Counted from the first letter of the stretch, positions 9,789 to 36,091 are shown. The stretch: 64,000 bases of DNA from Candidatus Omnitrophota bacterium (GCA_018830005.1 JAHJTE010000002.1:331809-395808), one strand, 5' to 3'. Numbers and translations: made by a program. The notes: generated by a model not told the origin, from the sequence alone.

Positions 9789-10499
9789 TCATTTTAAAAT
9801 TTTCTGGGCTTGCCGATATCTTTCTGGTGTTCCAATGTCAATAAAATCTGCGTCTGTCTTATACCCGTAAAAATCACTTTTAGTAATTTTGGGGAAAAGT
9901 TGTCGCTCTAGAGAAAAATTCTTATCAGATGGAATCATAGAAAATATCCTATTGTCAAAAAGATAAATCCCAGCACTTATAAAACAGCCTTCTCCTGTGT
10001 CCACTTTCTCATCAAATTTCAAAATCCTATCTGAATCCCCTATGCTAACAATGCCATAATCAGCTGCTTGTTCACTTTTAAGTAATACAGCTGAAAACAA
10101 TGCCTTTCTTTCGATATGAAACTTTATAAATTCCACAAGATCTAATTTACACAATGAATCCCCGTTTAAAACTAAAAAGGTAGGGCTTTTTATTAAGCTT
10201 TTAGCATTCTTTATTGCCCCTGCGGTACCCAATGGCTTTAACTCTTGGCTAAAACTTATCCTTAGATTCCTCAATTTATCCTTATAGTAGCTCTTAATTA
10301 AATCTGATTTATATCCTGTGCAAAGAATAAAGTGTTTAAATCCGAAGTTCGCAATATAATCAATCAGAATATCTAAAAAGGCGCGTCCATTAATTTCAGC
10401 CAGGACTTTTGGCCGATCATTCACAGCCGACTTAAGACGTTCGCCTTTTCCTCCACAAAGCAAAACTACATCTATAGATTCTGTCTCGATGCTATTCAT
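9789..10499 (-). CDS. hddC: Sugar-1-phosphate nucleotidyltransferase, D-glycero-alpha-D-manno-heptose-1-P guanylyltransferase-like
   Basis: LCGGKGERL nucleotidyltransferase motif; 236 aa; 4-bp ATGA overlap with the upstream GHMP kinase. The pairing is diagnostic of HddA/HddC. Confidence 0.6.
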   Translation of the reverse strand: MNSIETESIDVVLLCGGKGERLKSAVNDRPKVLAEINGRAFLDILIDYIANFGFKHFILCTGYKSDLIKSYYKDKLRNLRISFSQELKPLGTAGAIKNAKSLIKSPTFLVLNGDSLCKLDLVEFIKFHIERKALFSAVLLKSEQAADYGIVSIGDSDRILKFDEKVDTGEGCFISAGIYLFDNRIFSMIPSDKNFSLERQLFPKITKSDFYGYKTDADFIDIGTPERYRQAQKILK

Positions 10500-11500: not shown

Positions 11501-11503
11501 AAT

Positions 11504-13228: not shown

Positions 13229-13285
13229 AAATATTAAAATGTTTTTCTATTTAGATGCAGTATGCTAATAACCGCGAATTCACTT

Positions 13286-19201: not shown

Positions 19202-19295
19202 TCTTGTACCTCTCCTAGCTCCTATCTTATTAAAACGTCCTTCCTCAATTGTCCCAAGAGCTTACTTTGAAGGCTTAATTTATTTCCTAGATCTA

Positions 19296-20780
19296 TCATA
19301 ACTGCAATAAATGATGAATAGGTAATTTTCTGTTTCTATTTAAGCTTGCATAGCGTTGCGTGATTATATCCTCTGCTTTTTTTCGAAATTCAATTAATTC
19401 TTCGATATCCAAATTATAAGGTTTGATCCATGGCTTATCGCTAGCTTGATGAAAATTCTCGGCATATAAAATATCCTGATCAGGAACTAATAACAACTTA
19501 TTCCTAATAACTTCATCATATAATCTAGAGCCAGGAAGCGGGACGGCGGTATGGATTGATATGTTATCTAAATAAAGTTTATTTATCATCTCGTAAGTTT
19601 CCCTAAGAGTATCCGAGGTTTCTTGAGGTAGGCCAATAATAAAAAAAGCCCTTACAAAAATATCCTTTTCCTTGCGCATTAGTTCAAATACCTCAAATAT
19701 TTTTTCCCTCGGCAATTTTTTTCCCATAACTTTATTTCTAATGTAATCAGAACCGCTCTCTACAGCAAAGGATATCCTTAAAAGGCCCATAGCTTTTAGC
19801 GCCTCTAGAATATCCCTATCAAAAAACTTTATAGAGATACCGTTTGGTGTATCAACATAGATCTTGAGATTCTTTTTCCTAATCTTACTAGCGAGTTCAA
19901 GTACTCTACTTTTATCCATGCTAAAGTTATCATCTATTATTGAAAAATAATTAATACCATATTCATTATATAGGTATTCTATTTCTTTTAGGCAATTCTC
20001 AGCTGATCTGTATCTTATTTCTTTTCCATGAAGAAGATGCATAGCACAAAAATTACATCCCATAGGACAGCTACGACTTGAAAGGAAGGGGAATCTGTAT
20101 TTAAGGCTATATCCTTTGGGGTTGTGCCAATGCCTTTCCCACTTCTCTGACTCAATCTCATAATCCTGCAAATTTAAGAGTTCCCAGGCTGGATAGGGTA
20201 AAATGTCTAAATCATTAATGAAGTTTCTTTTAGGGTTGACTCTTATCCGGCCATCTCTGTAACATATTCCATCTATGTCTGATAGTGAACCACCATTGAA
20301 AATACAATTTAACAACTGAAGGAAAGACTCCTCCCCTTCACCAATAATAATAAAATCAACACAATCAAAGCGTTCAAGAATTTCCTTATAAAATACGGTC
20401 GGCTGGATACCACCTAGGACAACCGGAAGAGAACTATCTATCTTTTTTAAAACGGAACTTATGAAGATAGTGGCTGGAAATTTACCCGAAAATAAACAAC
20501 TAATACCAACAAGATCGGGTTTGTAATCATTGTAGGTGTCAGTAATTGTTTGCTCGACAAAAGCATCGAGATCATCTTTAAAAGATAAATTATGTCTTTT
20601 CAGAAGAGCTGGAATATCTAGATAAAATATATTATAACGGTTCTTCTTTAGAGTAGCTGCCAAAGAAAGCAAGCCTACCGAAGGATAAGGCTCCTCTCTC
20701 AAATTGCTAACCATTGAATCATTCGAGATATTACTGGATCTAACGTGAGAATTAATTAATAAAATCTTCTTACTATTCAT
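19296..20780 (-). CDS. Cobalamin-binding (class B) radical SAM enzyme
   Basis: N-terminal B12-binding-like domain (LVGISCLF…VVLGGIQPT), then SRSCPMGCNFC (CxxxCxxC). Confidence 0.75.
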   Translation of the reverse strand: MNSKKILLINSHVRSSNISNDSMVSNLREEPYPSVGLLSLAATLKKNRYNIFYLDIPALLKRHNLSFKDDLDAFVEQTITDTYNDYKPDLVGISCLFSGKFPATIFISSVLKKIDSSLPVVLGGIQPTVFYKEILERFDCVDFIIIGEGEESFLQLLNCIFNGGSLSDIDGICYRDGRIRVNPKRNFINDLDILPYPAWELLNLQDYEIESEKWERHWHNPKGYSLKYRFPFLSSRSCPMGCNFCAMHLLHGKEIRYRSAENCLKEIEYLYNEYGINYFSIIDDNFSMDKSRVLELASKIRKKNLKIYVDTPNGISIKFFDRDILEALKAMGLLRISFAVESGSDYIRNKVMGKKLPREKIFEVFELMRKEKDIFVRAFFIIGLPQETSDTLRETYEMINKLYLDNISIHTAVPLPGSRLYDEVIRNKLLLVPDQDILYAENFHQASDKPWIKPYNLDIEELIEFRKKAEDIITQRYASLNRNRKLPIHHLLQL

Positions 20781-21688
20781 CTTGACCTTTTATAGCTGGG
20801 GTCTTTTATCAATTGCTTTGCAGCTAGAGCAATTTGTTCAGCGGAAGGAGTGGAATTTCGAGACTCAAAATTAACGCCAATAGATCTATCCTCTAATCCT
20901 AATGCCTTTAGGGGCTTCCCGGTCTCCAACATCAACTGGTAGGCTATAGATTCAGATGCGCCACAAATTTCAAATCCGGCATCGATTACCAGCCCCGCCC
21001 TGCTATTACTTAGTGCTGCTATGATATGTTCCTTCTTAAACGGCTTTAACCATGCAACATGAGCAATATTACAACTAATGCCGTCCTTCTTTAAAATAGC
21101 TGCAGCCTCTTCTACTTCAAAACGAGCTGCTGAAATTGGAATTAATGTTATATCCGCGTCATTATCTGAATTTGTAAACTCTTCGGTGTTCTCAAAACTT
21201 GCTCTATGTTCACTAACGAACATGGGATCATCGTGCTCCATAAAATCATTCCAAGCCTGCTCATATTCAGTTGGTGTCATAGGAGAACAAACCCTCATAC
21301 CTGGCATATGCATAAATACGCTATGCAATACACCCGAATGGACACAACCCGCATCTTCCTGGGCTAATGCCCTTACAAATATAGGCATTAAAATTCCAAA
21401 AATATCTTTTGCCTTAGCAGCGTAATTTACTAACGTACTGCTATTAAGCCACATAAAATCTTGAAAACGAATTACAATAATAGGCCGTCTTCCTGTAATA
21501 CCTGCGCCGCAGGCAATACCCATATTTGATACATCTGACATAGGCAATTCAACCAGATTCTTAGAATTAGGTACTGTTTCGTTAATCCAGCCAACAGCTC
21601 TAATACATTGACCAAGTAGAAGGCCGTTATTTTCCTCAAGGTGCCTGCGAGTAATTTCTTTTATTGTCCCTGCAACTGTTTTCGCCAT
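20777..21688 (-). CDS. TPP-dependent dehydrogenase E1 beta-like / transketolase pyrimidine-binding and C-terminal domain protein
   Basis: 303 aa with Pyr-domain and transketolase-C-like segments; 4-bp overlap with the downstream rSAM gene and a 28-bp overlap with the E1 alpha-like gene. Confidence 0.6.
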   Translation of the reverse strand: MAKTVAGTIKEITRRHLEENNGLLLGQCIRAVGWINETVPNSKNLVELPMSDVSNMGIACGAGITGRRPIIVIRFQDFMWLNSSTLVNYAAKAKDIFGILMPIFVRALAQEDAGCVHSGVLHSVFMHMPGMRVCSPMTPTEYEQAWNDFMEHDDPMFVSEHRASFENTEEFTNSDNDADITLIPISAARFEVEEAAAILKKDGISCNIAHVAWLKPFKKEHIIAALSNSRAGLVIDAGFEICGASESIAYQLMLETGKPLKALGLEDRSIGVNFESRNSTPSAEQIALAAKQLIKDPSYKRSR

Positions 21689-22488
21689 AACTCTCCTACA
21701 TATCTTTTCATCTCATTCTCAATTAGTTTTGCATTAGAGATCTTCTTTTTTACCTCAGACAATCTATCTTGCTTAGGCGATCCATCATTACCTATACCAA
21801 CATGCCAAAGATGTCTACAGGTCTTTATATTAATAAAGGCGGGGAGACATTTAGTTAATTTCTTAATGCTATCAAAAATTATCTCAGGATCATCTACGAT
21901 TGATTCACTGACTAGCCCCATCGCCTTTGTTACGTCTGGAATCTTCCAATTTCTTCTTACCTCAATAGGCGTCAAAATAGACAAGTTGTTATCTTCACAA
22001 ACATACAAAATTGGCAATTTATTCTTTTCCGCAAAACCATAAGAGGATAATACATAATCCTCTTCGGCTGCTGCATCTCCGAAATAAACAACAGTAGGCT
22101 TTCCAGAGGCTAGGCAATAACCTGTAGCTAAAGGGATGTTTTCCCCTATAAGGCCATTATGGCTATACATAGGAATATTCAGATCTTTGATGCAAGGCGA
22201 TCCCCCCCTACCTTCACAACAGCCCGATCTTCTTCCTAATAACTCGTCAATGAGACGCTCGATATCGCCTCCGTACGACAAATAGGTTGAATGACAACGA
22301 TGTTGAGTAAAAACTGCGTAACCTTCTGTAAGAGCAGACATAGTTGCAGAAATTGCTTCTTGGCCTACTGACAAATAAACTACTCCGGGAACAAGGTTCT
22401 TTTTTACAGCTTCAACTACCTGAAACTCAAAATAACGAATAAGGCACATCTTCCTAAATATCTCTTCTAAATTTAGCTTTTTTTCCAT
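21661..22488 (-). CDS. TPP-dependent dehydrogenase E1 alpha-like subunit
   Basis: MCLIRYFEFQVVEAV…GVVYLSVGQEA resembles the pyruvate/acetoin dehydrogenase E1-alpha N-terminus; a GDAAAEE TPP-binding region. Confidence 0.65.
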   Translation of the reverse strand: MEKKLNLEEIFRKMCLIRYFEFQVVEAVKKNLVPGVVYLSVGQEAISATMSALTEGYAVFTQHRCHSTYLSYGGDIERLIDELLGRRSGCCEGRGGSPCIKDLNIPMYSHNGLIGENIPLATGYCLASGKPTVVYFGDAAAEEDYVLSSYGFAEKNKLPILYVCEDNNLSILTPIEVRRNWKIPDVTKAMGLVSESIVDDPEIIFDSIKKLTKCLPAFINIKTCRHLWHVGIGNDGSPKQDRLSEVKKKISNAKLIENEMKRYVGELWRKQLQGQ

Positions 22489-23627
22489 TTCTTATATAGG
22501 ATTAAAATATCACCATCTGTTAAAGATCTATTTTTTGCGGCATTATTTTTGCAAAACTTTAGGAATCCTCTCAGCTCTTCCTCTTCTAAATCAAGCTTTA
22601 GCTTTTTTAGTTTTTGCTCTAAGGCGCGCCTACCAGATAATTTTCCAATAACGAGTTGATAACCATCCAGGCCTATGTCTTGTGGATTTAAAAGCTGATA
22701 TGTTCGATTATATTTAATCATGCCATCTTGATGAATCCCTGATTCATGCAGGAATGCATTTGCCCCTACGATTGCCTTATTGGATGCAATTTTTATCCCC
22801 GATAATTCTTCAACTAACTTACTTGTATTTATAATTTCTTTCGTATTTATATAGCTTATATCTTCTTTAAATACATCTTCCCTGGCCTTTAGCGCCATAA
22901 TAACTTCTTCGCAAGCGGCATTTCCAACACGCTCTCCTATCCCATTAATGGTAACCTCTACTTGTCTGGCGCCTGCCTTTATCCCTGCCAAGGTATTTGC
23001 TACCGCCAATCCTAAATCATTGTGACAATGGGTGGAGACAACGATATCTTCTGGTAATTCCTTCGTGATGCTACCAATTAAAAAAGCATATTCTTCAGGA
23101 GTCGCATAACCAACTGTATCGGGCAGCTCAATTGTCAATGCACCTGCTTGCACGCAGGACTTACATACTTGTATAAGATAATCCAATTCGCTGCGAGTTG
23201 AATCCTCCGCAGCAAACTCGACATCTTGCCTAAAGCTCTTTGCATATTGAACCATTTCCACGCAAAGATCCAAAGCCTGCTGAGGAGAGATATTAAATTT
23301 ATGTTTCAAATGTATATCAGAAGTGCCCATTACAACTTGAATACGCCCTTTTTTTGCCTCGCCTAGAGCTTCTGCTGCCACCTCTATATCCTTTTTATGC
23401 GCCCTACACATGGTACTGATGATAATTGAATTTCCGAATTCCTTCGCGACAAGATTTACGCCTTTAGCATCTTGCTCAGAAGCTATAGGAAATCCTGCCT
23501 CAATAATAGGAAGTCCTAGCTTCACCAACTGCTCAGCGATCCTCAGCTTTTCTTCTGGTAAAAAATTTACGCCTGCTGCTTGCTCGCCGTCTCTTAAAGT
23601 AATATCATTTATTAACAAGTCTTTCAT
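22473..23627 (-). CDS. 2-isopropylmalate / homocitrate / citramalate synthase family (DRE-TIM metallolyase), short form without the LeuA regulatory domain
   Basis: LRDGEQ motif and the [16 protein letters not shown] signature; 384 aa. Confidence 0.75.
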
Positions 23628-24813
23628 TTCTCTTCACCACCTTCATATTCTTTGTCTCCATTAATACCTTCTTCATCTTTTCACAAGCCTCTTCAATAAT
23701 TTCAGGCCGCCTCATATAACAAAGTCTTATATAACCCTCCCCATATTCGCCAAAACAAGTTCCAGGAAGCAACACAACATTGCACTTCTCTAAAGCAAAA
23801 TCAGCAAACTGAGTACTGCTCATGCCTGTGCCTTTTATATTTGCAAAAACATAACAGGCGCCTTCCGGAAGACAACAAGAAACTCCCGGAATCTCATTTA
23901 ACTTCTTTACTATTAAATCCCTTAAGGATTTGTACTGCCTAATCCTATCCTCAATAACACTCTGGTCACCCTTTAAGGCACTTACACCCCCATATTGTAT
24001 AAAAGGAGGTGTACAAGAATAAATCGTTTGAAAAAGGCTGCCCATTTTTTCTATGACCTCTTTTGGACCTATTGCATAACCCAGGCGCCATCCAGGCATT
24101 GAATAGTTTTTGGCAAATCCATTTAGGATAATCGTACGCTCTTGACATTTATCAAGAGAGCTAGGGGAAAAATGCTCACCGTCGTAAATAATCTTAGAAT
24201 AAATTTCATCGCTTAAAAGATAGGTATCGTTATCTTTGGCCACTTTAGCAATAGCCTCCATCTCTTCCTTAGTCAGCACTGCGCCTGTGGGATTCTGGGG
24301 TGAATTTACAATTATCAGACGAGTCTTATCGGTAATCCGCTTTTCTATTGCATCGGCTTGTATATGGAATTTACTCTCTTCTTTAATAGGCACGCCAACC
24401 TTCTTTATGCCAGTATAATTCGTCACAGCCAGATAGGTGGAAAAGCCTGGGTCTGGATAAAGCACCTCTTCTCCCGGATTTGCCACGCAGCGCATTACAA
24501 AATCTATGATGCCATTTGCCGGCATAACCACTACTTGATCCAACTCTGGTTTAAAACCCAACGTCTCATGGGCATATTCACAGATGGCTTCCTTTAACTC
24601 AGGGATGCCTGCTGAATCAACATAATGAGTACAGCCATTATCTAAGGCCTCTTTAGTTGCATCTATTATGTGCTGATGAGCCCTAAAATCTGAATCGCCA
24701 ATCTCAAAATGAAAAATTTTCTTTCCAGCCTTCTCCATCTTCCTTATTTTAGCCATAAGCTTAAACATTGGCTGACCGATTAGTCCTTGCGTAATCTTAG
24801 CTAGTTTTTTCAT
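23605..24813 (-). CDS. Class I/II PLP aminotransferase (aspartate/aromatic aminotransferase-like)
   Basis: 402 aa; NSPQNPTG motif, SFAKNY (PLP-Lys region), and a GYIR C-terminal region. Confidence 0.75.
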   Translation of the reverse strand: MKKLAKITQGLIGQPMFKLMAKIRKMEKAGKKIFHFEIGDSDFRAHQHIIDATKEALDNGCTHYVDSAGIPELKEAICEYAHETLGFKPELDQVVVMPANGIIDFVMRCVANPGEEVLYPDPGFSTYLAVTNYTGIKKVGVPIKEESKFHIQADAIEKRITDKTRLIIVNSPQNPTGAVLTKEEMEAIAKVAKDNDTYLLSDEIYSKIIYDGEHFSPSSLDKCQERTIILNGFAKNYSMPGWRLGYAIGPKEVIEKMGSLFQTIYSCTPPFIQYGGVSALKGDQSVIEDRIRQYKSLRDLIVKKLNEIPGVSCCLPEGACYVFANIKGTGMSSTQFADFALEKCNVVLLPGTCFGEYGEGYIRLCYMRRPEIIEEACEKMKKVLMETKNMKVVKRNERLVNK

Positions 24814-25596: not shown

Positions 25597-26124
25597 TTAA
25601 TCGAACTCACTTCTTTTCCCTAAAATAATGATTTTTAATGCTATTATAATTTTTGAAATCCATAAAACAGTCGGCTTTCCAATATAATATTTACCATCTT
25701 TAAATATTATCTGACCACTGTTAATTAATCTATTCGTTCTCTTTTGGAATATCTCCTTGGCGCTGTATCGATTTAGAAGCTCTCCTAACTTGAGTCCGTC
25801 TCCTGCCTCATATAATTCCCTTAATATTCTTATACGACGTGCTGTCTCGCCTAAATTTATAAAATGAAAATAACAATAACCCAGACAACCGTAGCCTATC
25901 AAATTTATAACAAAAATATCACTAAGGCCTTCTAAGGAAACCTCTGGCCTAAAGGAGATAAAAGAGGTGAAAAATAAGAGATACAAAATGCCAATAACAA
26001 ATCCCAAATAAATTGAGTTCAATAATCCTATTTGTTTAAAATATCTAAAACTAAGTAGTTGTACTAAGACATTTATAATAAGGCAAATAACTGGCATAAA
26101 AACTAGAAAATAATCAAAAGTCAT
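25597..26124 (-). CDS. Small membrane protein with a C-terminal soluble domain (paralog 1)
   Basis: 175 aa; about 3 N-terminal TM helices; the C-terminal domain (…DGKYYIGKPT…) is similar to the neighbouring 26133..26645 product. Confidence 0.4.
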   Translation of the reverse strand: MTFDYFLVFMPVICLIINVLVQLLSFRYFKQIGLLNSIYLGFVIGILYLLFFTSFISFRPEVSLEGLSDIFVINLIGYGCLGYCYFHFINLGETARRIRILRELYEAGDGLKLGELLNRYSAKEIFQKRTNRLINSGQIIFKDGKYYIGKPTVLWISKIIIALKIIILGKRSEFD

Positions 26125-26132
26125 CTTATGAT

Positions 26133-26645
26133 CTATCCACCTTTTTCTAATCTGAGTAACTTACGATAAAAAACAAACAGCTTTGCTACTAAGGCTCCTG
26201 TTGCTCTTAACTTGTATTTGCCATTGCCAACGTAGATCATCTTCGCGGTAAGAAGATCATTCAATCTCGGCAATACTAAAACATCGTCATTCATATTTTG
26301 CTGTAACATATTTTCATCCAAGCCATTAGGACCTGCCTCATGGACTTTCATAACCATGACCAGAGAGGGACTATCTACCTCTAATCCTGAATAGGTCACA
26401 ATATAGGCTAATGTCAAAGAAATAAAAAGAATGCAAAGTTTTAGATATCCTAGAGGTAAGACTCTAGCGAAAATATCAGCTTGATTTGAAGATGTCCTCA
26501 AAAACAAAATCCCAACTAGCAAGATAGATAGAAAAATCAAAAACAATACATTAGTTTGATTTTTTGGGATACGAATCTTCCAAATTGCAAGATGAATAAA
26601 AAATGCTATTACAAATAGAACTATGCCATATAATAAAACGCTCAT
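26133..26645 (-). CDS. Small membrane protein with a C-terminal soluble domain (paralog 2)
   Basis: 170 aa; same architecture as the neighbouring 25597..26124 product (…EAGPNGLDENML…NGKYKLRATG…). Confidence 0.4.
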   Translation of the reverse strand: MSVLLYGIVLFVIAFFIHLAIWKIRIPKNQTNVLFLIFLSILLVGILFLRTSSNQADIFARVLPLGYLKLCILFISLTLAYIVTYSGLEVDSPSLVMVMKVHEAGPNGLDENMLQQNMNDDVLVLPRLNDLLTAKMIYVGNGKYKLRATGALVAKLFVFYRKLLRLEKGG

Positions 26646-26649
26646 AAAA

Positions 26650-27369
26650 TCAAAACTTCCCTTTAGTTATCGTTGCCTTATTAGCTTCTTTCCAGCTCAT
26701 ATAGAAATCATTTAATTTTTTAAACTCAAAGTAAGTCTGCAATGATGCTCTTGCCTCTGATACGACAAATCCAGAATACCCAGCCCTCCTAATCAAATCC
26801 AACATATATAAACTATGATCTGGCGATTGATGCAAGTGTGTATGCCATAAATCGCTACCAAAGACATAACCGGTCAAATGAATATGGGAGGCATCTTTTA
26901 TAACCGGTAAAAATTCCTCTTCATATACACCGCAACATTCTAACTGTAAATGCTCCACATCCAGACATCTGCCCAACCCAAATCGCCTCATAAATTTCAA
27001 AGGTTCATGCACGCTATGGGTATTTTCAACGCAGAGCTTAGTCTTAATGGGTGTAAAAATCTTTGTTATATCCAGCCATTCATCCTCCCAATAAATATTA
27101 TGAAAGACAACGATTTTTGCGCCGATTGCTTTCACTAACTCTGATAATTTATCTGGAGTTCCTAAGTCATGCGGTGCATGTACAGCATAGCTAAATGAAA
27201 ATCTCCTGCACAAAGCTATGAGGACATCTAGATTCCCTAGCATCTGTCCGTTTAGATAAAGTTCAACTCCACAGATGCCGGCCTTTTCAATATCGGATAA
27301 GATTCTCAGCTCTGGGGCAGACTTTACTGCCAAAACAATATCATTAATTTTATTCATAACTCTAGACAA
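26650..27369 (-). CDS. Sugar phosphate isomerase/epimerase (xylose-isomerase-like TIM barrel)
   Basis: 239 aa; the pattern of His/Glu/Asp metal ligands fits AP-endonuclease-2 / xylose isomerase-like barrels. Moderate confidence from composition and context. Confidence 0.5.
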   Translation of the reverse strand: MSRVMNKINDIVLAVKSAPELRILSDIEKAGICGVELYLNGQMLGNLDVLIALCRRFSFSYAVHAPHDLGTPDKLSELVKAIGAKIVVFHNIYWEDEWLDITKIFTPIKTKLCVENTHSVHEPLKFMRRFGLGRCLDVEHLQLECCGVYEEEFLPVIKDASHIHLTGYVFGSDLWHTHLHQSPDHSLYMLDLIRRAGYSGFVVSEARASLQTYFEFKKLNDFYMSWKEANKATITKGKF

Positions 27370-27389: not shown

Positions 27390-28157
27390 CTAACCAGATG
27401 AGCGTCTTATTGCCGTCAATGAATCTTTGGCAAAACCTGGTTCGCCTGCCTTATCTTTTTTAAAATAGAAATCTCTCAACAAGCGCAAATAACCACTAGC
27501 AACATGTAGAAGTGAAGGAAAACTAACAGCCTTGGAAATACCGTGTTCCCTTACGTCAAGCCTATATGGGACTTCAGCGAAGAGATAGCCTCGCTTTGCA
27601 GCTCTTATCAGTATGTCTGTCTGAAAGAAAAAGCCATTACTCCTAAATTTGAGCTCTTTTAAAATGGATTTTCTATAAAGTATGGTGCCATTTGTGTAAT
27701 GGAAGTTAACAACAAAAGTAGTATTAATAATAAAACGATAAATGAAAGAGAGAGCATTCCTGAATAAAGATCTTGCGTTTTTGTTAAAGACAAAAGGAAT
27801 AACTATATCTACCTGTTCAAGCAATTTGTAGTAACGCAAAATTTCCAAAGGGTCATTTTCATTATCCCCAGGCATCCAAAGCACAAAATCACCACCTGCC
27901 TTATCCACCCCATCCCAGAACGATGTCCCTACGCCTTTGGGCTTAGAGTGCGAAAGAATTTTAACCTTAGGATTCTTCTCCTTTAATATCTTTACTAAAT
28001 CTTCTGTCTTATCACAACTTCCGTCGTTAACTACAATAATCTCACCCTCAATATTAAAAACCTCAAAGGCCCTCAGGATATTCTCAATAGTTGCGGTGAT
28101 ATTCTTTTCTTCGTTAAGTGCAGTTACAACTACTGATACGCCTTTAACTTTATCCAT
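27390..28157 (-). CDS. GT2 glycosyltransferase, polyprenyl-phosphate sugar synthase-like
   Basis: VVVTALNEE…VNDGSCDKT…WMPGDNEND, typical of DPM-synthase-type GT2. Confidence 0.7.
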   Translation of the reverse strand: MDKVKGVSVVVTALNEEKNITATIENILRAFEVFNIEGEIIVVNDGSCDKTEDLVKILKEKNPKVKILSHSKPKGVGTSFWDGVDKAGGDFVLWMPGDNENDPLEILRYYKLLEQVDIVIPFVFNKNARSLFRNALSFIYRFIINTTFVVNFHYTNGTILYRKSILKELKFRSNGFFFQTDILIRAAKRGYLFAEVPYRLDVREHGISKAVSFPSLLHVASGYLRLLRDFYFKKDKAGEPGFAKDSLTAIRRSSG

Positions 28158-28178: not shown

Positions 28179-29270
28179 TTAAACAAAATTAACATGCTCA
28201 GGTGGATTTTTTAACTGCCAAACAAACTCATTTATAGCGTGAGTCCTACAATTTGAGTAACATTTATTAACATCAATTTGTGCAACTTTTTCCACTATCT
28301 TCCAGTATCTATCACTTCTGATTATGTCTTTGAAAGACTCCTTAGTTAAATCACCCATGCGATATTCTTTCTCCATGCTAGTATCCTTATCAAAACACAT
28401 ACCGCAAGGATATATTCTTCCCTCACCGCTTGAATATAACAAAAATGGCACGCCAAGGCATTGTTTATAACCTCTTTCTCCTCTATTTGCGATCTTCCAC
28501 CATTTTATTATCACATTATAGTTCTGCTGACTTTCACTCTCTGCCTCTTTCAGTACTTTTTGGAAATTCTCATATTCAGCAAGTTTACTATATACACCAA
28601 TATCGCTTTCTACTGTATCACTGCACTGTTTTACGACCAAATAATCTACCCCTAATTCCTTACCAAGTTTTGCTAAAGGAACTACCTGATCTACATTTGT
28701 AGGAGTTAAAACCATCTGAAGACCGACAGTGACACCTAATTTCTTTCTTTTTTTAGTCTGGACACAGAATCTTATTTTCTCAACTGCCGTAGAGAATTCC
28801 TTGCTACGATGAACTCTTAGATAAGCTACATCACTAGCAGCGCTGATGTTAAATCTTATCCAACTTAAATGTTCTAATGCCTCCTGGCCTGCTTGGCCTG
28901 TATCAAATAAAATACCATTCGTACCCATAGAGACATCTACGCCAGCTCTTTTAGCCTCTACTATTGCTTCGTAGACATGGGGGTTCAGTAATGGCTCGCC
29001 TTCCCCAATAAGCCCAAGAGACCTGACCCCTGCCTCAGGAGCTTCTCTTACATATCTTAAGAGGGCTTCTCGTGGGAAGAATTTATCAGCACCTTTCTTA
29101 TAAAAATTTCCCTGGAGCACTCCAAAACAGTACTCGCATCTAATATTACAACCTTTGCTTAATCCTACATCTATATGTATGGGAACAATCCTCTTGCCAT
29201 TGAGCCAGTCAGTAACTCTATCCAGGTGCCAATAAAGTTTATGTCCATCCATTATATATTTATCAATCAC
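28179..29270 (-). CDS. Radical SAM enzyme with a C-terminal SPASM/twitch-like Cys cluster (paralog 1)
   Basis: GCNIRCEYC (CxxxCxxC) near the N-terminus; a C-terminal C…GEGRIYPCGMC auxiliary-cluster-like motif; the tail ends …NPPEHVNFV. Confidence 0.7.
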   Translation of the reverse strand: MIDKYIMDGHKLYWHLDRVTDWLNGKRIVPIHIDVGLSKGCNIRCEYCFGVLQGNFYKKGADKFFPREALLRYVREAPEAGVRSLGLIGEGEPLLNPHVYEAIVEAKRAGVDVSMGTNGILFDTGQAGQEALEHLSWIRFNISAASDVAYLRVHRSKEFSTAVEKIRFCVQTKKRKKLGVTVGLQMVLTPTNVDQVVPLAKLGKELGVDYLVVKQCSDTVESDIGVYSKLAEYENFQKVLKEAESESQQNYNVIIKWWKIANRGERGYKQCLGVPFLLYSSGEGRIYPCGMCFDKDTSMEKEYRMGDLTKESFKDIIRSDRYWKIVEKVAQIDVNKCYSNCRTHAINEFVWQLKNPPEHVNFV

Positions 29271-29283
29271 GATTCAATCTCCG

Positions 29284-30183
29284 TCAAATTTTGGCTTTTA
29301 TCCTATCGCAATATTCTCTTACGGCGTCTTGCCAAGGCCTTAAGCTGGGGATTTTCTCAGATTTCAGCGGTGTATTAGTATTTTTTATACAGGTAAAAGG
29401 GAAATCTTTATAAGATGCCTTCTGAATCTCAGCATCCAATTTAAGACATTTAATAATCTCTTTCATTAATTCAAACAATGATGCCTTGCCTTGGTTAGCT
29501 ATATGATAAAGCCCAAAGGCAGAGCTTGACCTTAGAATACGCAAGATCTCCCCTGCTACATCTCTACTGTATGTTGGCGATGAAATAATATCAGCAGCAA
29601 TCTTTAAAGCCTTTTGCCCTTGTTTTATTCTTTGTAGCATCTTTTCAACGAATTGATTGTCTTTTGTAGTTTCACCAAACAATACAGATACTCTAAAAAT
29701 ATAATATGTCTTCGCTATTGCCTGTATGAGACAATCAGCACCATACTTTGTAAGCCCATATAAATTTAGAGGATGAGGCGCATCACTTTCAACATAATAA
29801 TCCTGTTTTTCATCATTAAAAACAGCATCTGTACTAAAGTGAACCAGCAAAAATCCGTATTCATTTGAAAGTTCAGCTAACGCTTTAGGATATAGGGTAT
29901 TTACTGCCAGGGTATCTTGCGGGTCATCTGCGCAAGGATCAAGGCCTAAGGAGGCGACAGTATTTAAAACTACCTCTGGCTTATTTTCTTTAATAAGTGC
30001 GTGAACCTGTCTTGAGTCTCTTGCATCAAAATCCTTGCTATTTTTCCCGATGACCTCAAAATCATTGTTTGTAAAAACCTCAGTTAAAGCAAGTCCCATT
30101 TTGCCTGTGGAACCAAGCAATAAGACTCTTCCTTTTAAAGGATTAGGAAGGCCTATCCCTGTGGATAATACCCTTTTACTCAT
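29284..30183 (-). CDS. NAD(P)-dependent sugar 4-reductase, RmlD (dTDP-4-dehydrorhamnose reductase)-like
   Basis: LLLGSTGKMG Rossmann motif and YGLTK catalytic motif; 299 aa. Confidence 0.65.
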   Translation of the reverse strand: MSKRVLSTGIGLPNPLKGRVLLLGSTGKMGLALTEVFTNNDFEVIGKNSKDFDARDSRQVHALIKENKPEVVLNTVASLGLDPCADDPQDTLAVNTLYPKALAELSNEYGFLLVHFSTDAVFNDEKQDYYVESDAPHPLNLYGLTKYGADCLIQAIAKTYYIFRVSVLFGETTKDNQFVEKMLQRIKQGQKALKIAADIISSPTYSRDVAGEILRILRSSSAFGLYHIANQGKASLFELMKEIIKCLKLDAEIQKASYKDFPFTCIKNTNTPLKSEKIPSLRPWQDAVREYCDRIKAKI

Positions 30184-31087
30184 ACCTGAGTGCCTCCTTA
30201 ACTGCGCATCTAATAGCTTTTGAGGAAATCCCGTAATAATCTCTCATGCCTTTCCTATTTTTAATCTTATGTATAAATTCATTACTTATGCCCATTTTCT
30301 TTAATCTAATGCTGAGGCCTTGCTCAAGAATCCAATCAGCAATGATACTACCTAGCCCGCCATCTATGAAATGTTCCTCAACCGTTATTACGGTATGTAT
30401 ATTCTTTAGCTCCTTAAGAAGAGCTGGGAAATCCAGAGGACAAATCTTAGGAACAGATATTACCTTCACTGTCCCCTTAAAACCTTCTACTGCAGAGATT
30501 ACTTCCTCCCCAATTGAACCGTGAAATAAAACTGCCACTTCCTTGCCTTCTCTTATTACTATAGGTTTCTCTATTGTCTTTGGCGGCCTTTTGTGAATCC
30601 TAGGCTCACCGCTTTTGGCAAGGCGTATATAAACCGGTAACTTACTAGAAAAAGCATACTCAGCACATTTTTCTGCCTCAAGCGGATCTGAAGGAGAAAG
30701 TATGACTAAATTAGGTAAACTCCTTGCAATTTGTATATCCTCAATAGAATAATGTGTGACACCTTGCGGTGCATACGTCAGTCCACTTCCAATCCCCACT
30801 AAAGTAATCGGTAATCTCTGATAACAGATATCATTTCTAACCTGTTCATAGCACCTGAAAAGAAGAAAAGGAATGATATTGTATAAAAAGATCTTATACC
30901 CGGCAAGCGCTAAGCCAGCGGAAAAACTTATCATATTCTGTTCGGCAACGCCAAGGTTTAAGAATCTATCTGGAAACGTCTTTTTAAATTCATCCAAGAC
31001 CCCGAAGCCAGCGTCTCCGGTTATTAAGAAGATTCTTTTATTCTCTCTGGCGCAATCTGTTATTCTACTGATTACACTATCTCTCAT
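30176..31087 (-). CDS. Transketolase, C-terminal section (split transketolase subunit B)
   Basis: Pyrimidine-binding and C-terminal transketolase domains (VAEQNM…); 4-bp overlap with the N-terminal-section gene. Confidence 0.8.
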   Translation of the reverse strand: MRDSVISRITDCARENKRIFLITGDAGFGVLDEFKKTFPDRFLNLGVAEQNMISFSAGLALAGYKIFLYNIIPFLLFRCYEQVRNDICYQRLPITLVGIGSGLTYAPQGVTHYSIEDIQIARSLPNLVILSPSDPLEAEKCAEYAFSSKLPVYIRLAKSGEPRIHKRPPKTIEKPIVIREGKEVAVLFHGSIGEEVISAVEGFKGTVKVISVPKICPLDFPALLKELKNIHTVITVEEHFIDGGLGSIIADWILEQGLSIRLKKMGISNEFIHKIKNRKGMRDYYGISSKAIRCAVKEALRYE

Positions 31088-31899
31088 TTTGCCTTAGGGC
31101 ATAAATTCTTAAGCGCTTCTCTTTTTAAATCATCCGTAACAATAAAATAATGCCATTTATTCTCATTTTCCATGAAGGGAACGCCTTTGCCTTTCACTGT
31201 CTGAGCTATTATTATTTTAGGCCTTCCTTTAGAAGGCTCTTTTAGGGCTTTAAAAATCTGCGTAAAATTATGCCCATCAACTTTATGTGTCTGCCATCCA
31301 AACGCCTCCCATTTTTCAATAATAGGCTCAAAATAGCATATCTCTGTTGGCCGGCCGTAACCTTGAAGATTGTTATAATCTAGGATTGCAGTAAGATTAT
31401 CTACTCCTAATTTTGAAGCAAATAAGGCACCTTCCCAGATAGAACCCTCTTGTGATTCTCCGTCACCAATCAAAGTAAAAATTCTTCTCTTATCTTTTTT
31501 GAGTTTATAGCCGTAGGCCATTCCGATTGCCATATTAAACCCATGCCCTAAAGAACCACAGGATGCCTCAATCGGCTTTGCGCTGAATCTATCAAGATGA
31601 GCAGGTAATGTTCCATCATTTTGAAAATATCTCTTTAAGGTATCCTGGCTAATAAACTTCTTTAAAGCAAAAACAGCATAAAGCGCCATAGCTGCATGCG
31701 CTTTACTAAGTATGAATATATCTCTGTTTTTCCAATCCCCTAGATCTATTTTAAGTTCATGGAAATAAAGAGCTACTAGTAAATCCACGCACGATAAAGA
31801 TGATCCTACATGTGCGCTTCCTGATCTACAGGCAACATCTAGAATCAATTTTCTTGCTTCATCTGCGATTCTTTTAAATTTAGTTTCTAGTCCTGGCAT
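31084..31899 (-). CDS. Transketolase, N-terminal section (split transketolase subunit A)
   Basis: GHVGSSLS and GDGESQEG TPP-binding motifs. Confidence 0.8.
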   Translation of the reverse strand: MPGLETKFKRIADEARKLILDVACRSGSAHVGSSLSCVDLLVALYFHELKIDLGDWKNRDIFILSKAHAAMALYAVFALKKFISQDTLKRYFQNDGTLPAHLDRFSAKPIEASCGSLGHGFNMAIGMAYGYKLKKDKRRIFTLIGDGESQEGSIWEGALFASKLGVDNLTAILDYNNLQGYGRPTEICYFEPIIEKWEAFGWQTHKVDGHNFTQIFKALKEPSKGRPKIIIAQTVKGKGVPFMENENKWHYFIVTDDLKREALKNLCPKAK

Positions 31900-31919
31900 A
31901 TTTGTTTTAAAGAAAACTT

Positions 31920-33008
31920 TTATACAAAATTTACGTGTTCTGGCGGATGTTTTAATCTCCAGAGATACCTATTTACTTCATCCAAACGGCAAACTTCGCG
32001 ACACTCATCTATATTCCATTTGCTCTTCATCATCTTACGAATTGCCTTTCTTTTCTTTCCCTTCCATATCTTACTAAATGTTGCTTTGTTAATATTGCCA
32101 TAGCGAAAACGTTCCTCTCCTAAAAAGCTGCTACAGGCATATAAGTCGCCATTTGAAGCAAGATAGGCCCAAAAAGGAAGTCCTAAACATTTCCTGTAAG
32201 GTCTCGGTTGCGTGATCTTTGACATAGTATGTTTTCTAAATATTATTCTAAAATCTTCTCTTTTATATTTCTTCAGGCTCTCTTCTAAGGATAGCAATCT
32301 CTTGTAATCAAGCTTGGATTTAAGACGGTTAATACTTAAAGGGTGTTGCGAATAGGGCTTTATAATAAGGTAATCAGCTCCAATGTCCCTTAAGATCTTT
32401 GCTACTTTTTCTACCTCATTATAATTCTCATTTAAAAGCAGAAATTGAACACCGATAGTGCAGGCGTATCCCATTTTCTTTTTTAATCTAACCGCCTCTT
32501 TAATATTATTGATAACCTTGTTAAAATCGTTTTGCTTAGTGCGGTGAATCAAAGAATAGGTCTTTGCACTTCCAGCGTTAAGGCTTATCCTCAGCCAGCT
32601 AAGTGAAGAAAGAATCTGCCCTGAGATATGTTTAGTTAACAATACGCCATTTGTAGTAATGGCTACATCTAGACCATTTTTCTTTGCGTATTTTACTAAG
32701 GAGGCTAGGTCTTTATTAAGCAAGGGCTCCCCCTCACCGGCAAACATTATGCTTTTTACTCCTCTGGCGGCAATGTCTTTTATAAATCCTTTCAGGATTT
32801 TGGTGTCTAGGCGGCATGCCTTATATCCTAAATAGTCTAGGCCGCAAAAAATACAACGATGATTACATCCACCATAAGGCGTAATCTCCATATAAATAGG
32901 ATAGATATCTTTTCCTAGCAGCCAATCAGAAACGCGTTGCGGATGATAGATTAATTTTTGACTTTCAATTCTATATTCATCCATTGTTTTTAATAAAATA
33001 ATCAACAA
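31920..33008 (-). CDS. Radical SAM enzyme with a SPASM/twitch-like C-terminus (paralog 2)
   Basis: GGCNHRCIFC cluster motif; C…NGDLYACSSF auxiliary motif; the identical C-terminal tail …HPPEHVNFV to the 28179..29270 product. The likely true start is the internal MDEYRIE Met at 32984. Confidence 0.7.
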   Translation of the reverse strand: MLIILLKTMDEYRIESQKLIYHPQRVSDWLLGKDIYPIYMEITPYGGCNHRCIFCGLDYLGYKACRLDTKILKGFIKDIAARGVKSIMFAGEGEPLLNKDLASLVKYAKKNGLDVAITTNGVLLTKHISGQILSSLSWLRISLNAGSAKTYSLIHRTKQNDFNKVINNIKEAVRLKKKMGYACTIGVQFLLLNENYNEVEKVAKILRDIGADYLIIKPYSQHPLSINRLKSKLDYKRLLSLEESLKKYKREDFRIIFRKHTMSKITQPRPYRKCLGLPFWAYLASNGDLYACSSFLGEERFRYGNINKATFSKIWKGKKRKAIRKMMKSKWNIDECREVCRLDEVNRYLWRLKHPPEHVNFV

Positions 33009-33549: not shown

Positions 33550-35085
33550 TTATTTAAGAAGAGTTAATATATATTTAAATAAAGGCCCTAGCTCTACAGA
33601 AGAGCGATTTCCCACGATCAAAACCTTCATTGCCCCTGCGGCATTGCCTATAAAACCTACGACTTGCATTGGATTATCATTCAGTACCCAAGGTGATGTC
33701 AGGGAAAAATAGGCATCTCCTGCCCCAATCCTATCTACCACCTCTTTAGAGAAAACCGGAATCTCACTAAAACCATCTTTTTTCGAATATATCAAAGAAC
33801 CTCTGTGGCCTCGCGTAATAATTATCTTTTCACATTTCAGCTTCTTGCTTATTTCAAGAATTAATCTTTCTAAGTTAGAAAATTTATCATGACATGCAAG
33901 CCTTATTTCAGGTTCATCAATACAGATATAGTCAGCTCTAGGAAATTTCGTAATAAGATTAAAACCGAGGTTTGCGCTATTGGTCTGGACATTAACAGCT
34001 AAATGCGGCGCATTCTTAGAAAGCACATCCACTACCTTAGGTGTAATCAATCCATGGCCAAAATCAGCCACCAGCACCATATCAAATTCCCTAAGCTGAG
34101 ACTTTAAATAGCCACATATCTCATTTTCTAATTCTCTCGGCAAATGATTTGCATCTTCTAGGTAGCAAATTTCAAATAATTTATTCAAAAAATTAGGGTC
34201 AACAAATCTACGTTTAACTACCGTAGGGGCTTCTTTATTATAATAAAACTTGGTTTTTATATTTTTCTTGAGATGACTCTTAATAAAATCTGCGTAGTCA
34301 TTTTTCTTGCCGATACAACTAAGCAAAGTTACCTTCTTAGAAAACCCTGCTAAGTGATTAGCAGCAGCTAAAGCGCCACCTGCGAATGTCTCCTCATTTA
34401 AGAATCTAGTAGCAATTATGTTGTCCTTGGCAGACTTTCCCATACCCACACAGTAGTGATATTCATCTATGATTATGTCTCCTATGACAAGGATCTTTAT
34501 ATCTTGTATTTTCTTGAATCGATCAATTATATCTTTGGCAGGATACCGCCTCTTAAATTTATTAAGAAAATCTCTTGCCTCTTCCGAATAAGGAGCAAGA
34601 AATGTATTTATAATATTGGAAGAACTAAAGGTAATTTCATCAGTAAAATGAAGCATGCCGCCAACAGATTTAACTACTGCCTCTTCTTCGTAGATCTTGC
34701 CTGTAATATCGTCTTCCTTTCTTGCATAATCGCTGCCCTTAACATAGAAGTGCGGTTTTATCTTTTTCAAGGTCTCGACTGCTGTTGGCCATTCATTTAT
34801 TGCTACAAAATCAACTGCCTCTATAGCTGCAATGCTTTCTGCACGTAATTGCTGATTAAATATGGGCCTGCCCGGACCCCTATTCACATGTTCATCGCGT
34901 GTTAACGTAACTACCAGAATATCCCCCTTTTCCTTTGCCGCTTCGAAATGCTTCAGATGTCCTGGATGTAGAAGATCAAATACGCCATGGCAATGAACTA
35001 TTCTTTTGCCCTTTTTCCTAAAACCTTCTAGGATTTTGCTAAGTTCATTGAGTGTTTTAATTTTTGAATCAATATTTTTACCCAT
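33550..35085 (-). CDS. Bifunctional heptose-phosphate nucleotidyltransferase / PfkB-family sugar kinase (HldE-like, but with inverted domain order)
   Basis: An N-terminal cytidylyltransferase-like domain with HCHGVFDLLHPGH (HxGH); a C-terminal ribokinase/PfkB domain with DRIGAGDAY (GAGD anion hole). Confidence 0.7.
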   Translation of the reverse strand: MGKNIDSKIKTLNELSKILEGFRKKGKRIVHCHGVFDLLHPGHLKHFEAAKEKGDILVVTLTRDEHVNRGPGRPIFNQQLRAESIAAIEAVDFVAINEWPTAVETLKKIKPHFYVKGSDYARKEDDITGKIYEEEAVVKSVGGMLHFTDEITFSSSNIINTFLAPYSEEARDFLNKFKRRYPAKDIIDRFKKIQDIKILVIGDIIIDEYHYCVGMGKSAKDNIIATRFLNEETFAGGALAAANHLAGFSKKVTLLSCIGKKNDYADFIKSHLKKNIKTKFYYNKEAPTVVKRRFVDPNFLNKLFEICYLEDANHLPRELENEICGYLKSQLREFDMVLVADFGHGLITPKVVDVLSKNAPHLAVNVQTNSANLGFNLITKFPRADYICIDEPEIRLACHDKFSNLERLILEISKKLKCEKIIITRGHRGSLIYSKKDGFSEIPVFSKEVVDRIGAGDAYFSLTSPWVLNDNPMQVVGFIGNAAGAMKVLIVGNRSSVELGPLFKYILTLLK

Positions 35086-35095: not shown

Positions 35096-36091
35096 TTATT
35101 TAGAGAGATACTTAAACCACTCTTTCGTGGTCTCTCCTATCTTCTCCGGAGTCCATACCGGAGCATCCTTCCAGTAATCTATGTTTTCTAAAATCTTATC
35201 GACTCCCGCTTGAAATGAAACTTGAGGTTGCCAGGAAAGTTTCTCGCTAATCTTATGTATATCCGCCCACGTGCAATCAGGCTCACCCGGCCTTTTAGGG
35301 ATATGTACAACCTCCCCGCCTAAAATGGAAACCAGCTTATTTACGCTCTGTGGATTGCCTGTGCCTACATTGAAAATTCCTGTTTTTACCTTAGAGCTTG
35401 CAGCCCTAACAAAGGCACTTACAACATCAGAGACATAGATAAAATCTCTTTTTTGCTCACCGTCACCAACTACTGTAAAAGGCATAGACTTTAACTTTTG
35501 TGCTAAAAATACTCCAAAAACAGCTCCGTAGGTACCGGATGTCCTTGAACGCGGACCGTAGACATTAAATAATCTTAATGATATAACCGGCATCTTATAT
35601 ACTTTACCCCAATGAAAAACTATTTGTTCTCCTAAATATTTTGTTAATGCATAAGGATATTGGGGACTAATCTTAGCTGTCTCTTTAGTAGGCAAAACCT
35701 TGGCTATACCGTAACAAGAAGAAGATGCGGCATAAATCAACTTTTTAACTTTAGAAACTCTAGAGGCCTCAGCCACACAGGCTGTACCTGTAACATTTGA
35801 ATCATAGTATTTTATGGGATTAACTATTGAAGGAACAATATCAGCTAATGCTCCAAGATGAAATACTATATCTATTCCTTTAAAATATTCTATTATCTTA
35901 TCAAGTTTTGTTATGTCCTCTTTAATCAAGGTAAAATTCTTATTTTTTTTCTGATGAGCTAAGTTCTCAGCCCTACCAGTTGAAAAGTTATCAATTACAG
36001 TAACCTTATTGCCCTCTAAAAGCAAGCAGTCAACTAAATGACTACCTATAAAACCTGCCCCACCTGTAACTAAACACCTTTTCATCTTCAT
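35096..36091 (-). CDS. NAD-dependent epimerase/dehydratase (UDP-glucuronate decarboxylase / heptose epimerase-like extended SDR)
   Basis: LVTGGAGFIGSHL and YALTK catalytic motif. It is the first gene of the long operon. Confidence 0.75.
   Translation of the reverse strand: MKMKRCLVTGGAGFIGSHLVDCLLLEGNKVTVIDNFSTGRAENLAHQKKNKNFTLIKEDITKLDKIIEYFKGIDIVFHLGALADIVPSIVNPIKYYDSNVTGTACVAEASRVSKVKKLIYAASSSCYGIAKVLPTKETAKISPQYPYALTKYLGEQIVFHWGKVYKMPVISLRLFNVYGPRSRTSGTYGAVFGVFLAQKLKSMPFTVVGDGEQKRDFIYVSDVVSAFVRAASSKVKTGIFNVGTGNPQSVNKLVSILGGEVVHIPKRPGEPDCTWADIHKISEKLSWQPQVSFQAGVDKILENIDYWKDAPVWTPEKIGETTKEWFKYLSK

Follow-up and report, generated by a model that had tools for sequence, protein, structure and literature searches.

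Two radical SAM proteins of a widespread family encoded among sugar-nucleotide genes in Candidatus Omnitrophota

Gene order at the locus

The window analyzed here, i.e., a stretch of 64,000 nucleotides from a Candidatus Omnitrophota metagenome-assembled genome (MAG; GCA_018830005.1, JAHJTE010000002.1:331809-395808), contains two radical S-adenosylmethionine (SAM) genes, termed rSAM-A and rSAM-B. They bracket genes for an RmlD-like short-chain dehydrogenase/reductase (SDR) and for the two halves of a transketolase-like enzyme dependent on thiamine diphosphate (ThDP), an arrangement proposed in a first-pass annotation and borne out by Pfam searches. According to the reading of open reading frames (ORFs), every gene in this part of the window is located on the minus strand. 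The features are as follows:

25597-26124 and 26133-26645, minus strand: two paralogous small membrane proteins, TM2 and TM1, respectively (conserved context)
26650-27369, minus strand: CbiR-like/AP_endonuc_2 TIM-barrel protein (NF041277 CbiR 34 bits, cut-off 105; PF01261 weak)
27390-28157, minus strand: glycosyltransferase family 2 (GT2) protein, polyprenyl-phosphate glycosyltransferase-like, ArnC/DPM1 type (Pfam Glycos_transf_2)
28179-29270, minus strand: rSAM-A, predicted twitch-type radical SAM protein, A1 orthogroup, 363 aa
29284-30183, minus strand: RmlD-like sugar-nucleotide ketoreductase, NAD(P)H-dependent, partner of rSAM-A (PF04321, E 3e-59)
30176-31087, minus strand: transketolase-like ThDP enzyme, Pyr and C-terminal half, acceptor/phosphate site remodelled (6yaj, E 3e-44)
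31084-31899, minus strand: transketolase-like ThDP enzyme, PP (N-terminal) half (6yak, E 3e-62)
31920-32984, minus strand: rSAM-B, predicted twitch-type radical SAM protein, B orthogroup, start M9, 354 aa
32977-33537, minus strand: GmhA-like SIS protein (sedoheptulose-7-phosphate isomerase; NCBIfam and PDB matches)
33550-35085, minus strand: HldE-like bifunctional enzyme with reversed domain order, 511 aa (Pfam and NCBIfam)
35096-36091, minus strand: extended SDR, nucleoside diphosphate (NDP)-sugar 4-epimerase-like, first gene of the packed block (PDB matches)

Between 26650 and 36091 all intergenic gaps measure 21 nt or less, or the genes overlap, and therefore this block is probably a single operon. 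Promoter- and terminator-like sites between 24000 and 38500 were not more frequent than in shuffled sequences and are uninformative with regard to operon structure, and a search of the whole window against Rfam matched zero RNA families. The GmhA-like and HldE-like genes adjoin the pair as annotated; together with the extended SDR gene they are located directly upstream of rSAM-B in the direction of transcription, that is, at higher coordinates. The boundaries first given for rSAM-A stood unchanged, whereas the TTG-start ORF initially taken for rSAM-B extends to 33008 and overlaps the gmhA-like gene. As a public protein with 100% identity (P0121, from an NCBI "Candidatus Omnitrophica" MAG) and all orthologues begin at M9, we place the rSAM-B gene at 31920-32984.

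The RmlD-like protein carries the motifs GSTGKMG (GxxGxxG) and YGLTK (YxxxK), its best PDB matches are dTDP-4-dehydrorhamnose reductases and its score against TIGR01214 (191.4 bits) is just under the cut-off of 224. NCBIfam matches of the GT2 protein to ArnC, PgfS and PpgS are weak, and the extended SDR is 55-70% identical to the corresponding SDRs of related gene cassettes in other phyla. TM1 and TM2 are about 170 aa long and combine three or four membrane helices at the N-terminus with a soluble domain at the C-terminus. Searches of both against Pfam and NCBIfam gave no match; they possibly handle a lipid-linked sugar.

Signature, class and size of the radical SAM family

The two proteins are 32% identical over their full length (BLASTP, E 9e-66). 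Both carry the CxxxCxxC motif (C41/C45/C48 in rSAM-A, C40/C44/C47 in rSAM-B) and score above the Pfam gathering thresholds for Radical_SAM (PF04055; 51.3 bits for rSAM-A and 65.1 for rSAM-B, threshold 29.5) and SPASM (PF13186; 29.6 and 34.5 bits, threshold 21.5), which assigns them to the radical SAM superfamily. The auxiliary C…G..YxC-type motif and the terminal PPEHVNFV described in the first-pass annotation were likewise found in both. In detail, the C-terminal cysteines are C271 and C289 (C-x12-G-x4-C) and C337 and C341 (CxxxC; rSAM-A numbering), and these four together with the three of CxxxCxxC are the only seven near-invariant cysteines in alignments of A-type and B-type orthologues.

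The identical C-terminal ends are not a special property of this pair. A family profile search of 1.84 billion cluster representatives (E <= 1e-30) revealed at least 1581 clusters at 50% identity, and the motifs were checked in the best 150 of them. CxxxCxxC was present in 144/150 representatives, C-x9-15-G-x4-C in 143/150 and the CxxxC close to the C-terminus in 139/150, so the C-terminal cysteine motif is indeed conserved among homologs. Nearly all of the 150 end with ...CR(M/L)D.xN.YLW.LK(N/H)P..H.NF(I/V)-COOH and therefore the shared tail, together with the four cysteines, is a hallmark of a large family. At the DNA level six of the eight tail codons differ synonymously between the two genes, which rules out recent gene conversion and indicates purifying selection on the protein.

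Orthologues of rSAM-A share 60-84% identity across phyla and those of rSAM-B 45-73%, which far exceeds the 32% between the two types. As each type also has its own partner gene (see below), the sequences point to an ancient split and not to a recent duplication. On complete plasmids of Solidesulfovibrio carbinolicus and Azospirillum oryzae, PGAP labels family members merely as "radical SAM protein" or "radical SAM/SPASM domain-containing protein". In two members from outside the window (P0340 and P0355) the radical SAM core is interrupted close to its beginning by an intein (Intein_splicing with HNH or LAGLIDADG domains). In a phage collection one weak match was found (MW202801.1, 19661-20701, 23% identity, E 7e-20); this relative, from an uncultured member of the Caudoviricetes, is annotated as Fe-S oxidoreductase and a putative glycosyltransferase gene adjoins it.

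With regard to the enzyme class, the first-pass annotation had left the choice between twitch and SPASM proteins. The full seven-cysteine SPASM motif (C-x9-15-G-x4-C ... C-x2-C-x5-C-x3-C ... C) is absent, as the C-x2-C-x5 part is missing, and the truncated form, C-x9-15-G-x4-C with further cysteines, is present. Since only four auxiliary cysteines are conserved, both proteins fit a twitch domain with one cluster and not a seven-cysteine SPASM domain. Every NCBIfam model stayed below its cut-off for both proteins; the best was TIGR04317, the maturase of a tungsten cofactor oxidoreductase (80.1 and 107.9 bits, cut-off 380), and the DesII model TIGR04426 reached 36.4 bits with rSAM-A and 50.4 with rSAM-B (cut-off 450). 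A sequence search of the PDB returned MoaA, BlsE and DesII, all of them distant matches.

DesII, a TDP-4-amino-4,6-dideoxy-D-glucose deaminase and also TDP-quinovose dehydrogenase (PDB 8hzv/8hzy), is the best structural match in the PDB for both rSAM-A (AlphaFold2 model, pLDDT 87.6) and rSAM-B. However, this likeness is confined to the fold: identity is only 16-18%, the N-terminus of DesII is about 100 residues longer and the family differs from DesII by its four conserved C-terminal cysteines and the ...H.NF(I/V) tail; DesII is not known to have an auxiliary cluster. BtrN and anSME share the C-x9-15-G-x4-C auxiliary-cluster motif with the family and are both among the fold matches; the route proposed below assumes their type of chemistry, in which an alcohol is oxidised to a carbonyl. 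The remaining relative among the sugar enzymes, the cytosylglucuronate decarboxylase BlsE (PDB 7vob; TIGR04466 48 bits, cut-off 400), differs in that it is a decarboxylase and the cassette of the window has no uronic acid pathway.

Conserved partners, fusions and the nature of the sugar

Loci with rSAM-A orthologues were initially looked up in Scalindua, Thermodesulfovibrionales and Elusimicrobiota. In the first two the gene order is HldE-like, SIS, rSAM-B, NUDIX, TktN, TktC (the transketolase-like halves), RmlD-like and rSAM-A. The Elusimicrobiota locus reads NUDIX, TktN, TktC, RmlD-like, rSAM-A and GT2; its SIS and HldE-like genes follow downstream in the other orientation, and rSAM-B was not found in the 21 kb shown. 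When each species was represented by a single genome, 80 loci were recovered, distributed over Omnitrophota, Elusimicrobiota, Nitrospirota, Nitrospinota, Planctomycetota, Desulfobacterota, Alpha-, Beta- and Gammaproteobacteria, Magnetococcales, Campylobacterota, Lachnospiraceae, Lentisphaerae, DPANN archaea and one Paceibacterota. The order SDR/HldE-like/SIS/rSAM-B/ThDP pair/RmlD-like/rSAM-A/GT2 recurs in Omnitrophota, Elusimicrobiota, Nitrospirota, Planctomycetota, Desulfobacterota, Pseudomonadota, Bacillota, DPANN archaea and the Candidate Phyla Radiation (CPR). Cultured carriers include, among others, Phaeospirillum tilakii, Roseospirillum parvum, Aquitalea magnusonii, a Nitrospina isolate and Pseudoalteromonas luteoviolacea; family members are also carried by cultured Azospirillum and Solidesulfovibrio.

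Neighbours were counted in 82 non-redundant loci by tblastn and ORF clustering, with the A1 orthogroup defined as at least 55% identity to rSAM-A. The RmlD-like gene is located directly upstream of A1 in 23/31 loci and anywhere in the locus in 28/31, compared with only five loci that lack A1; the downstream neighbour of A1 varies (GT2 in five). More distant A-like types (about 40-48% identity) come after E1 beta or GT2 genes. For the B type (51 loci), the gene directly upstream encodes SIS in 11, an HldE-like enzyme in 10 and a GT9-family glycosyltransferase in eight cases (together 29/51), and directly downstream follow TktN in 13, E1 alpha in 10 and NUDIX in four (together 27/51). A ThDP pair is present in 44/51 B loci and in 60/82 loci overall. 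The B type is thus placed between NDP-heptose genes and ThDP enzymes, and the A type goes together with the RmlD-like reductase. Genes for DegT keto-sugar aminotransferases were counted in 15 loci, those of the heptosyltransferase family GT9 in 13 and GT2 genes in 27/82, often beside an A-type rSAM. A CbiR-like gene recurs after GT2/rSAM in seven loci (L003, L033, L045, L055, L056, L059 and L065), and downstream of GT2/CbiR-like genes TM1 is found in 10 loci and TM2 in five, from Nitrospirota, Planctomycetota, Elusimicrobiota, Omnitrophota and Nitrospina.

The most elaborate cassette was observed in a Thermodesulfovibrionales genome (L003, JAUXOF010000063.1, 3785-18782), where four twitch rSAMs, a transketolase-like pair, an E1 alpha/beta pair, two SDRs, GT2, CbiR-like and TM1/TM2 genes form one run, a layout that suggests iterated rSAM/ThDP modules. 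Orthologues of the A1 type (60-73% identity) together with parts of the cassette are also present in L008, L028 and L039, and a distant A-like type (41%) in L063; the MAGs concerned are labelled Hydrothermarchaeota, Nanoarchaeota, Woesearchaeota and Paceibacterota, respectively. This spread to MAGs of archaea and of the CPR implies that the genes moved horizontally and that the acceptor is not restricted to lipopolysaccharide. In 12 loci (L001, 2271-3239; L003, 2333-3280; and 10 others) a protein of about 320 aa with weak similarity to deoxyhypusine synthase and to the C-terminal Rossmann domain of ArgZ heads the cassette, often followed by a small stand-alone nucleotidyltransferase resembling RfaE domain II (eight loci); neither gene is present in the window.

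Further evidence for these partnerships comes from gene fusions among the family representatives, in which the rSAM part is of the B type and 40-46% identical to rSAM-B of the window. A SIS-rSAM fusion (P0249) has a SIS part 36% identical to the SIS protein of the window, and in three fusions (P0251, P0272 and P0296) an HldE-type nucleotidyltransferase with 37-46% identity to the N-terminal domain of our HldE-like protein is joined to the rSAM. In P0256 the partner is a ThDP enzyme resembling acetolactate synthase (ALS), 39% identical to the ALS-like gene product at 17411-19201, and in P0255 a methyltransferase; in a more distant member (P0372) two rSAM modules flank a DegT aminotransferase. 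The fusions tie rSAM-B to makers of activated sugars on one side and to a ThDP enzyme on the other.

Among PDB entries, both transketolase-like halves are closest to the split, active transketolase of Carboxydothermus hydrogenoformans (6yak and 6yaj). Compared with these structures and human TKT, the enzyme has kept the ThDP-binding GDG motif, the Glu that activates the cofactor (GVAEQN) and the four catalytic His, and the cofactor and catalytic motifs expected of a transketolase (EC 2.2.1.1) are thus in place. In the NCBIfam transketolase models the N half reached 228 and the C half 130 bits, against a cut-off of 488. The sugar-phosphate site is different. In yeast transketolase Arg359, Ser386, His469 and Arg528 presumably bind the substrate phosphate and Asp477 presumably reads the C2 hydroxyl of the acceptor. 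Relative to the C. hydrogenoformans enzyme, the following replacements are common to the window enzyme and all its close orthologues (yeast numbering):

DADLSKSTKT to GDAGFGV-L: Ser386 lost, one-residue deletion, DXS-like
ATHAG to GIGSG: His469 to Gly
GEDG to APQG: Asp477 to Gln, Gly or Ala
RLGRSG to RLAKSG: Arg528 to Lys

Only the equivalent of Arg359 (MR-D/N) is kept of the four phosphate-binding positions. In 16 loci (L054, L055, L060-L066, L077-L085 and others) the second transketolase-like gene encodes about 170 aa with the Pyr domain only, and the transketolase C-terminal domain is missing.

With respect to the sugar, the 13 best PDB matches of the SIS protein are phosphoheptose isomerases (GmhA), as are its four best NCBIfam models (66-105 bits, cut-offs 209-320; TIGR00441 105 bits against 209). 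Its catalytic positions align with those of GmhA as His, Asp (for Glu), Glu (for Gln) and His; we take the catalytic and metal-binding residues of E. coli GmhA to be His61, Glu65, Gln172 and His180. The HldE-like protein combines a CTP_transf_like domain (33-159) at the N-terminus with a PfkB domain (197-496) at the C-terminus, and scores 158.8 bits with the HldE model NF008454 (cut-off 521), 114 with rfaE_dom_I and 103 with rfaE_dom_II. Despite the reversed domains it may work like HldE. HddC-like (9789-10499) and HddA-like (10496-11500) genes, so named after their best NCBIfam matches (146 bits, under cut-off), are also present in the window and suggest a second, GDP-heptose-type activation route. 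The cassette resembles the ADP-heptose pathway (GmhA, HldE, GmhB, HldD) in that its SIS protein is nearest to GmhA, HldE/RfaE are the nearest models for its kinase and nucleotidyltransferase domains and GT9-family transferases occur in 13 related loci. We assume that the sugar is probably an NDP-heptose or a close analogue.

The rest of the window contains further glycan genes, which at 1212-5186, 9789-14992 and 15948-24813 are on the minus strand. Downstream of the block and in the same orientation, a second tailoring block (15948-24813) encodes two B12-binding radical SAM proteins (15948-17456 and 19296-20780), the ALS-like ThDP enzyme (17411-19201), an E1 alpha/beta-like pair (20777-22488), a protein resembling isopropylmalate/homocitrate synthases without the C-terminal regulatory domain (22473-23627; 497 bits, cut-off 532) and a class I/II aminotransferase (23605-24813). 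In total, three ThDP enzyme classes (transketolase-like, E1 alpha/beta-like and ALS-like) and four radical SAM genes are found in one glycan locus. Beside the HddC-like and HddA-like genes lie two paralogous PMT_2/ArnT-like membrane proteins of the GT-C type with about 570 aa (11504-14992). PseB-like (4206-5186) and PseC/DegT-like (3035-4213) proteins are encoded further on, and two ORFs of 381 aa (1861-3006) and 223 aa (1212-1883, with a methyltransferase-like motif) were read by eye. A large unannotated membrane protein of 782 aa (5208-7556) has no match in Pfam.

A possible tailoring route and competing explanations

Taken together, we propose that the rSAM pair tailors a nucleotide-activated sugar, most likely an NDP-heptose, and assign a probability of about 0.5 to this model as a whole. 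What the data show directly are the family signature, the structural kinship with DesII and BlsE, the conserved gene order, the fusions and the altered transketolase site; all steps of the route itself are inferred. Gene neighbourhood, fusions and the fold match to DesII agree with the sugar-acting role in a heptose-nucleotide context that was foreseen in the first-pass annotation. Its assumption of two separate radical steps is also supported, as rSAM-A and rSAM-B fall into two orthogroups that diverged long ago and differ in their conserved partners.

Judged from homology, the GmhA-like isomerase and the HldE-like enzyme would make the NDP-heptose from sedoheptulose 7-phosphate, and the extended SDR might epimerise it. 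rSAM-B would then remove a carbinol hydrogen in BtrN-type or DesII-type chemistry, with its single predicted auxiliary [4Fe-4S] cluster as electron acceptor, yielding a keto or aldehyde sugar. To this acceptor the transketolase-like enzyme would add a dihydroxyethyl C2 unit, leading to a C-branched or chain-extended sugar, and in other cassettes an E1 alpha/beta or ALS-like enzyme may add a hydroxyethyl unit instead. The dyad of rSAM-A and the RmlD-like protein could form a keto (or deoxy-keto) sugar that is subsequently reduced with NAD(P)H, resulting in net epimerisation or deoxygenation, or it could reduce the newly added ketol. Finally, the GT2 protein (27390-28157) would put the product on polyprenyl phosphate, and the CbiR-like protein and the two small membrane proteins (25597-27369) together with the two PMT_2 GT-C proteins (11504-14992) may serve export and transfer.

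A comparable logic is found in the ThDP-dependent two-carbon branching of NDP-keto-sugars by the yersiniose enzyme YerE and by AviB1/AviB2 and similar E1 alpha/beta pairs of antibiotic sugars, where the ThDP gene is also located next to sugar-nucleotide genes and followed by a ketoreductase. YerE-type ThDP enzymes need a keto-sugar acceptor. In those systems the keto group is provided by an SDR 4,6-dehydratase, whereas the core of the window cassette has no such dehydratase and a radical SAM enzyme in that position, and the sugar is apparently a heptose.

Several observations weigh against this model. The best PDB matches of the extended SDR are UDP-hexose/HexNAc 4-epimerases (6dnt, 7ys8, WbgU, WbpP), to which it is nearer than to HldD (3sxp, much weaker). 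All matches to GmhA, HldE and RmlD models stay under the curated, equivalog-level cut-offs, and the domains of the HldE-like protein are in the reverse of the HldE order (kinase N-terminal, adenylyltransferase C-terminal). Furthermore, a motif scan of the window for the phosphatase GmhB found no HAD ORF, and it found no NUDIX ORF either. Owing to the low scores, the reversed domains and the GalE/WbpP-like type of the SDR, the substrate may not be ordinary ADP-heptose. In addition, ThDP genes are missing from about one quarter of the loci (e.g., L016 and L065) and the coupling of rSAM and ThDP genes is therefore frequent, not obligatory. Finally, a DesII-like structure cannot separate dehydrogenase, lyase, epimerase or C-C-forming chemistry.

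This last point leads to other radical reactions. The family could comprise epimerases such as HygY, NeoN or AviX12, diol dehydratases such as AprD4 with the RmlD-like protein in the role of AprD3, or C-C cyclases, which in this case would close a carbocycle in the higher-carbon sugar after the ThDP step. The close A1/RmlD-like dyad (adjacent in 23/31 loci) resembles the dehydratase-reductase logic of AprD4/AprD3, the obligatory pair of radical SAM diol dehydratase and NADPH reductase in apramycin C3' deoxygenation; moreover, the top structural match DesII is natively a lyase, and the C-C-forming MoaA appears among both the sequence and the fold matches. Jointly, we regard these reactions as somewhat unlikely. 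A different role for the transketolase-like enzyme follows the line of the first-pass annotation: the split enzyme supplies sedoheptulose 7-phosphate or another ketose phosphate to the GmhA-like protein and the two rSAMs act regiospecifically on the heptose nucleotide. The adjacent GmhA-like and HldE-like genes, the active split transketolase as nearest solved relative and the retained catalytic His, Glu and GDG fit such a supply, and in lincosamide octose formation the ketose phosphate is provided by a transaldolase/isomerase route. In all close orthologues, however, the acceptor-reading Asp is replaced, as are three of the four positions for phosphate binding, and the ThDP genes come after rSAM-B and not before SIS. 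In cassettes that keep SIS and HldE-like genes the same slot can be filled by E1 alpha/beta pairs (L043, L044, L048 and L067-L069), and pyruvate-type methyl-ketone products are unfit as substrates of SIS/GmhA-type isomerases. Together with the fusion of an ALS-like enzyme to rSAM-B, this argues for a sugar nucleotide already processed by rSAM-B as the substrate of the ThDP enzyme; a function as dedicated supplier of sedoheptulose 7-phosphate is unlikely, and the explanation built on it improbable.

By far the least probable explanation is that the two proteins are generic maturases of peptides or metallocofactors (PqqE/AlbA or tungsten-cofactor type) that are present in a glycan island by chance. 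It draws on TIGR04317 as the best NCBIfam model, on weak matches to PapB, PqqE and SCIFF maturases and on the high structural matches to SkfB and SuiB, but the scores of the PqqE/AlbA/SCIFF type (36-46 bits) are far under the cut-offs of 340-425. The gaps beside both rSAM genes measure 13-21 nt, or the genes overlap, which leaves no space for a precursor gene, and the about 35 residues before CxxxCxxC, two short helices in the model, contain no RRE or PqqD-like domain. As the neighbourhood of sugar genes and the fusions are also conserved across phyla, context as well as gene spacing and domain content led us to reject the peptide-maturase reading, which supports rSAM-A and rSAM-B as sugar-nucleotide enzymes.

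Returning to the proposed tailoring of an NDP-sugar, a broader and more tentative extension, which we consider possible though doubtful, would be an oxygen-independent, widespread route to higher-carbon or C-branched heptose-derived sugars. Here a twitch rSAM would replace the SDR dehydratase as the maker of the acceptor, interchangeable ThDP enzymes would add C2 units and rSAM/reductase modules would iterate, and the product, borne on polyprenyl phosphate, would decorate bacterial and archaeal envelopes including those of DPANN and CPR members with their small genomes.

Twitch-type radical SAM enzymes with sugar substrates have been described before, and sugar-acting radical SAM enzymes in general are known from a handful of antibiotic pathways. 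In a literature search combining radical SAM with heptose, transketolase, nucleotide sugar and twitch/SPASM, and among the curated NCBIfam models, we found no description of this rSAM family with its signature tail or of its coupling to NDP-heptose, ThDP and RmlD-like genes in a cassette. The radical SAM genes mentioned in a paper on Campylobacter jejuni HS:19 are unrelated. By synteny and fusion, the family described here is tied to primary surface-glycan genes in more than 10 phyla. If the coupling of rSAM and ThDP enzymes is true, it would represent a new oxygen-free logic for branched or extended sugars and would provide a testable function for a distinct transketolase-like subfamily, and as yet unknown monosaccharides would be predicted as envelope components of Omnitrophota, anammox bacteria, Nitrospirota and others. 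The availability of several cultured hosts makes direct testing feasible.

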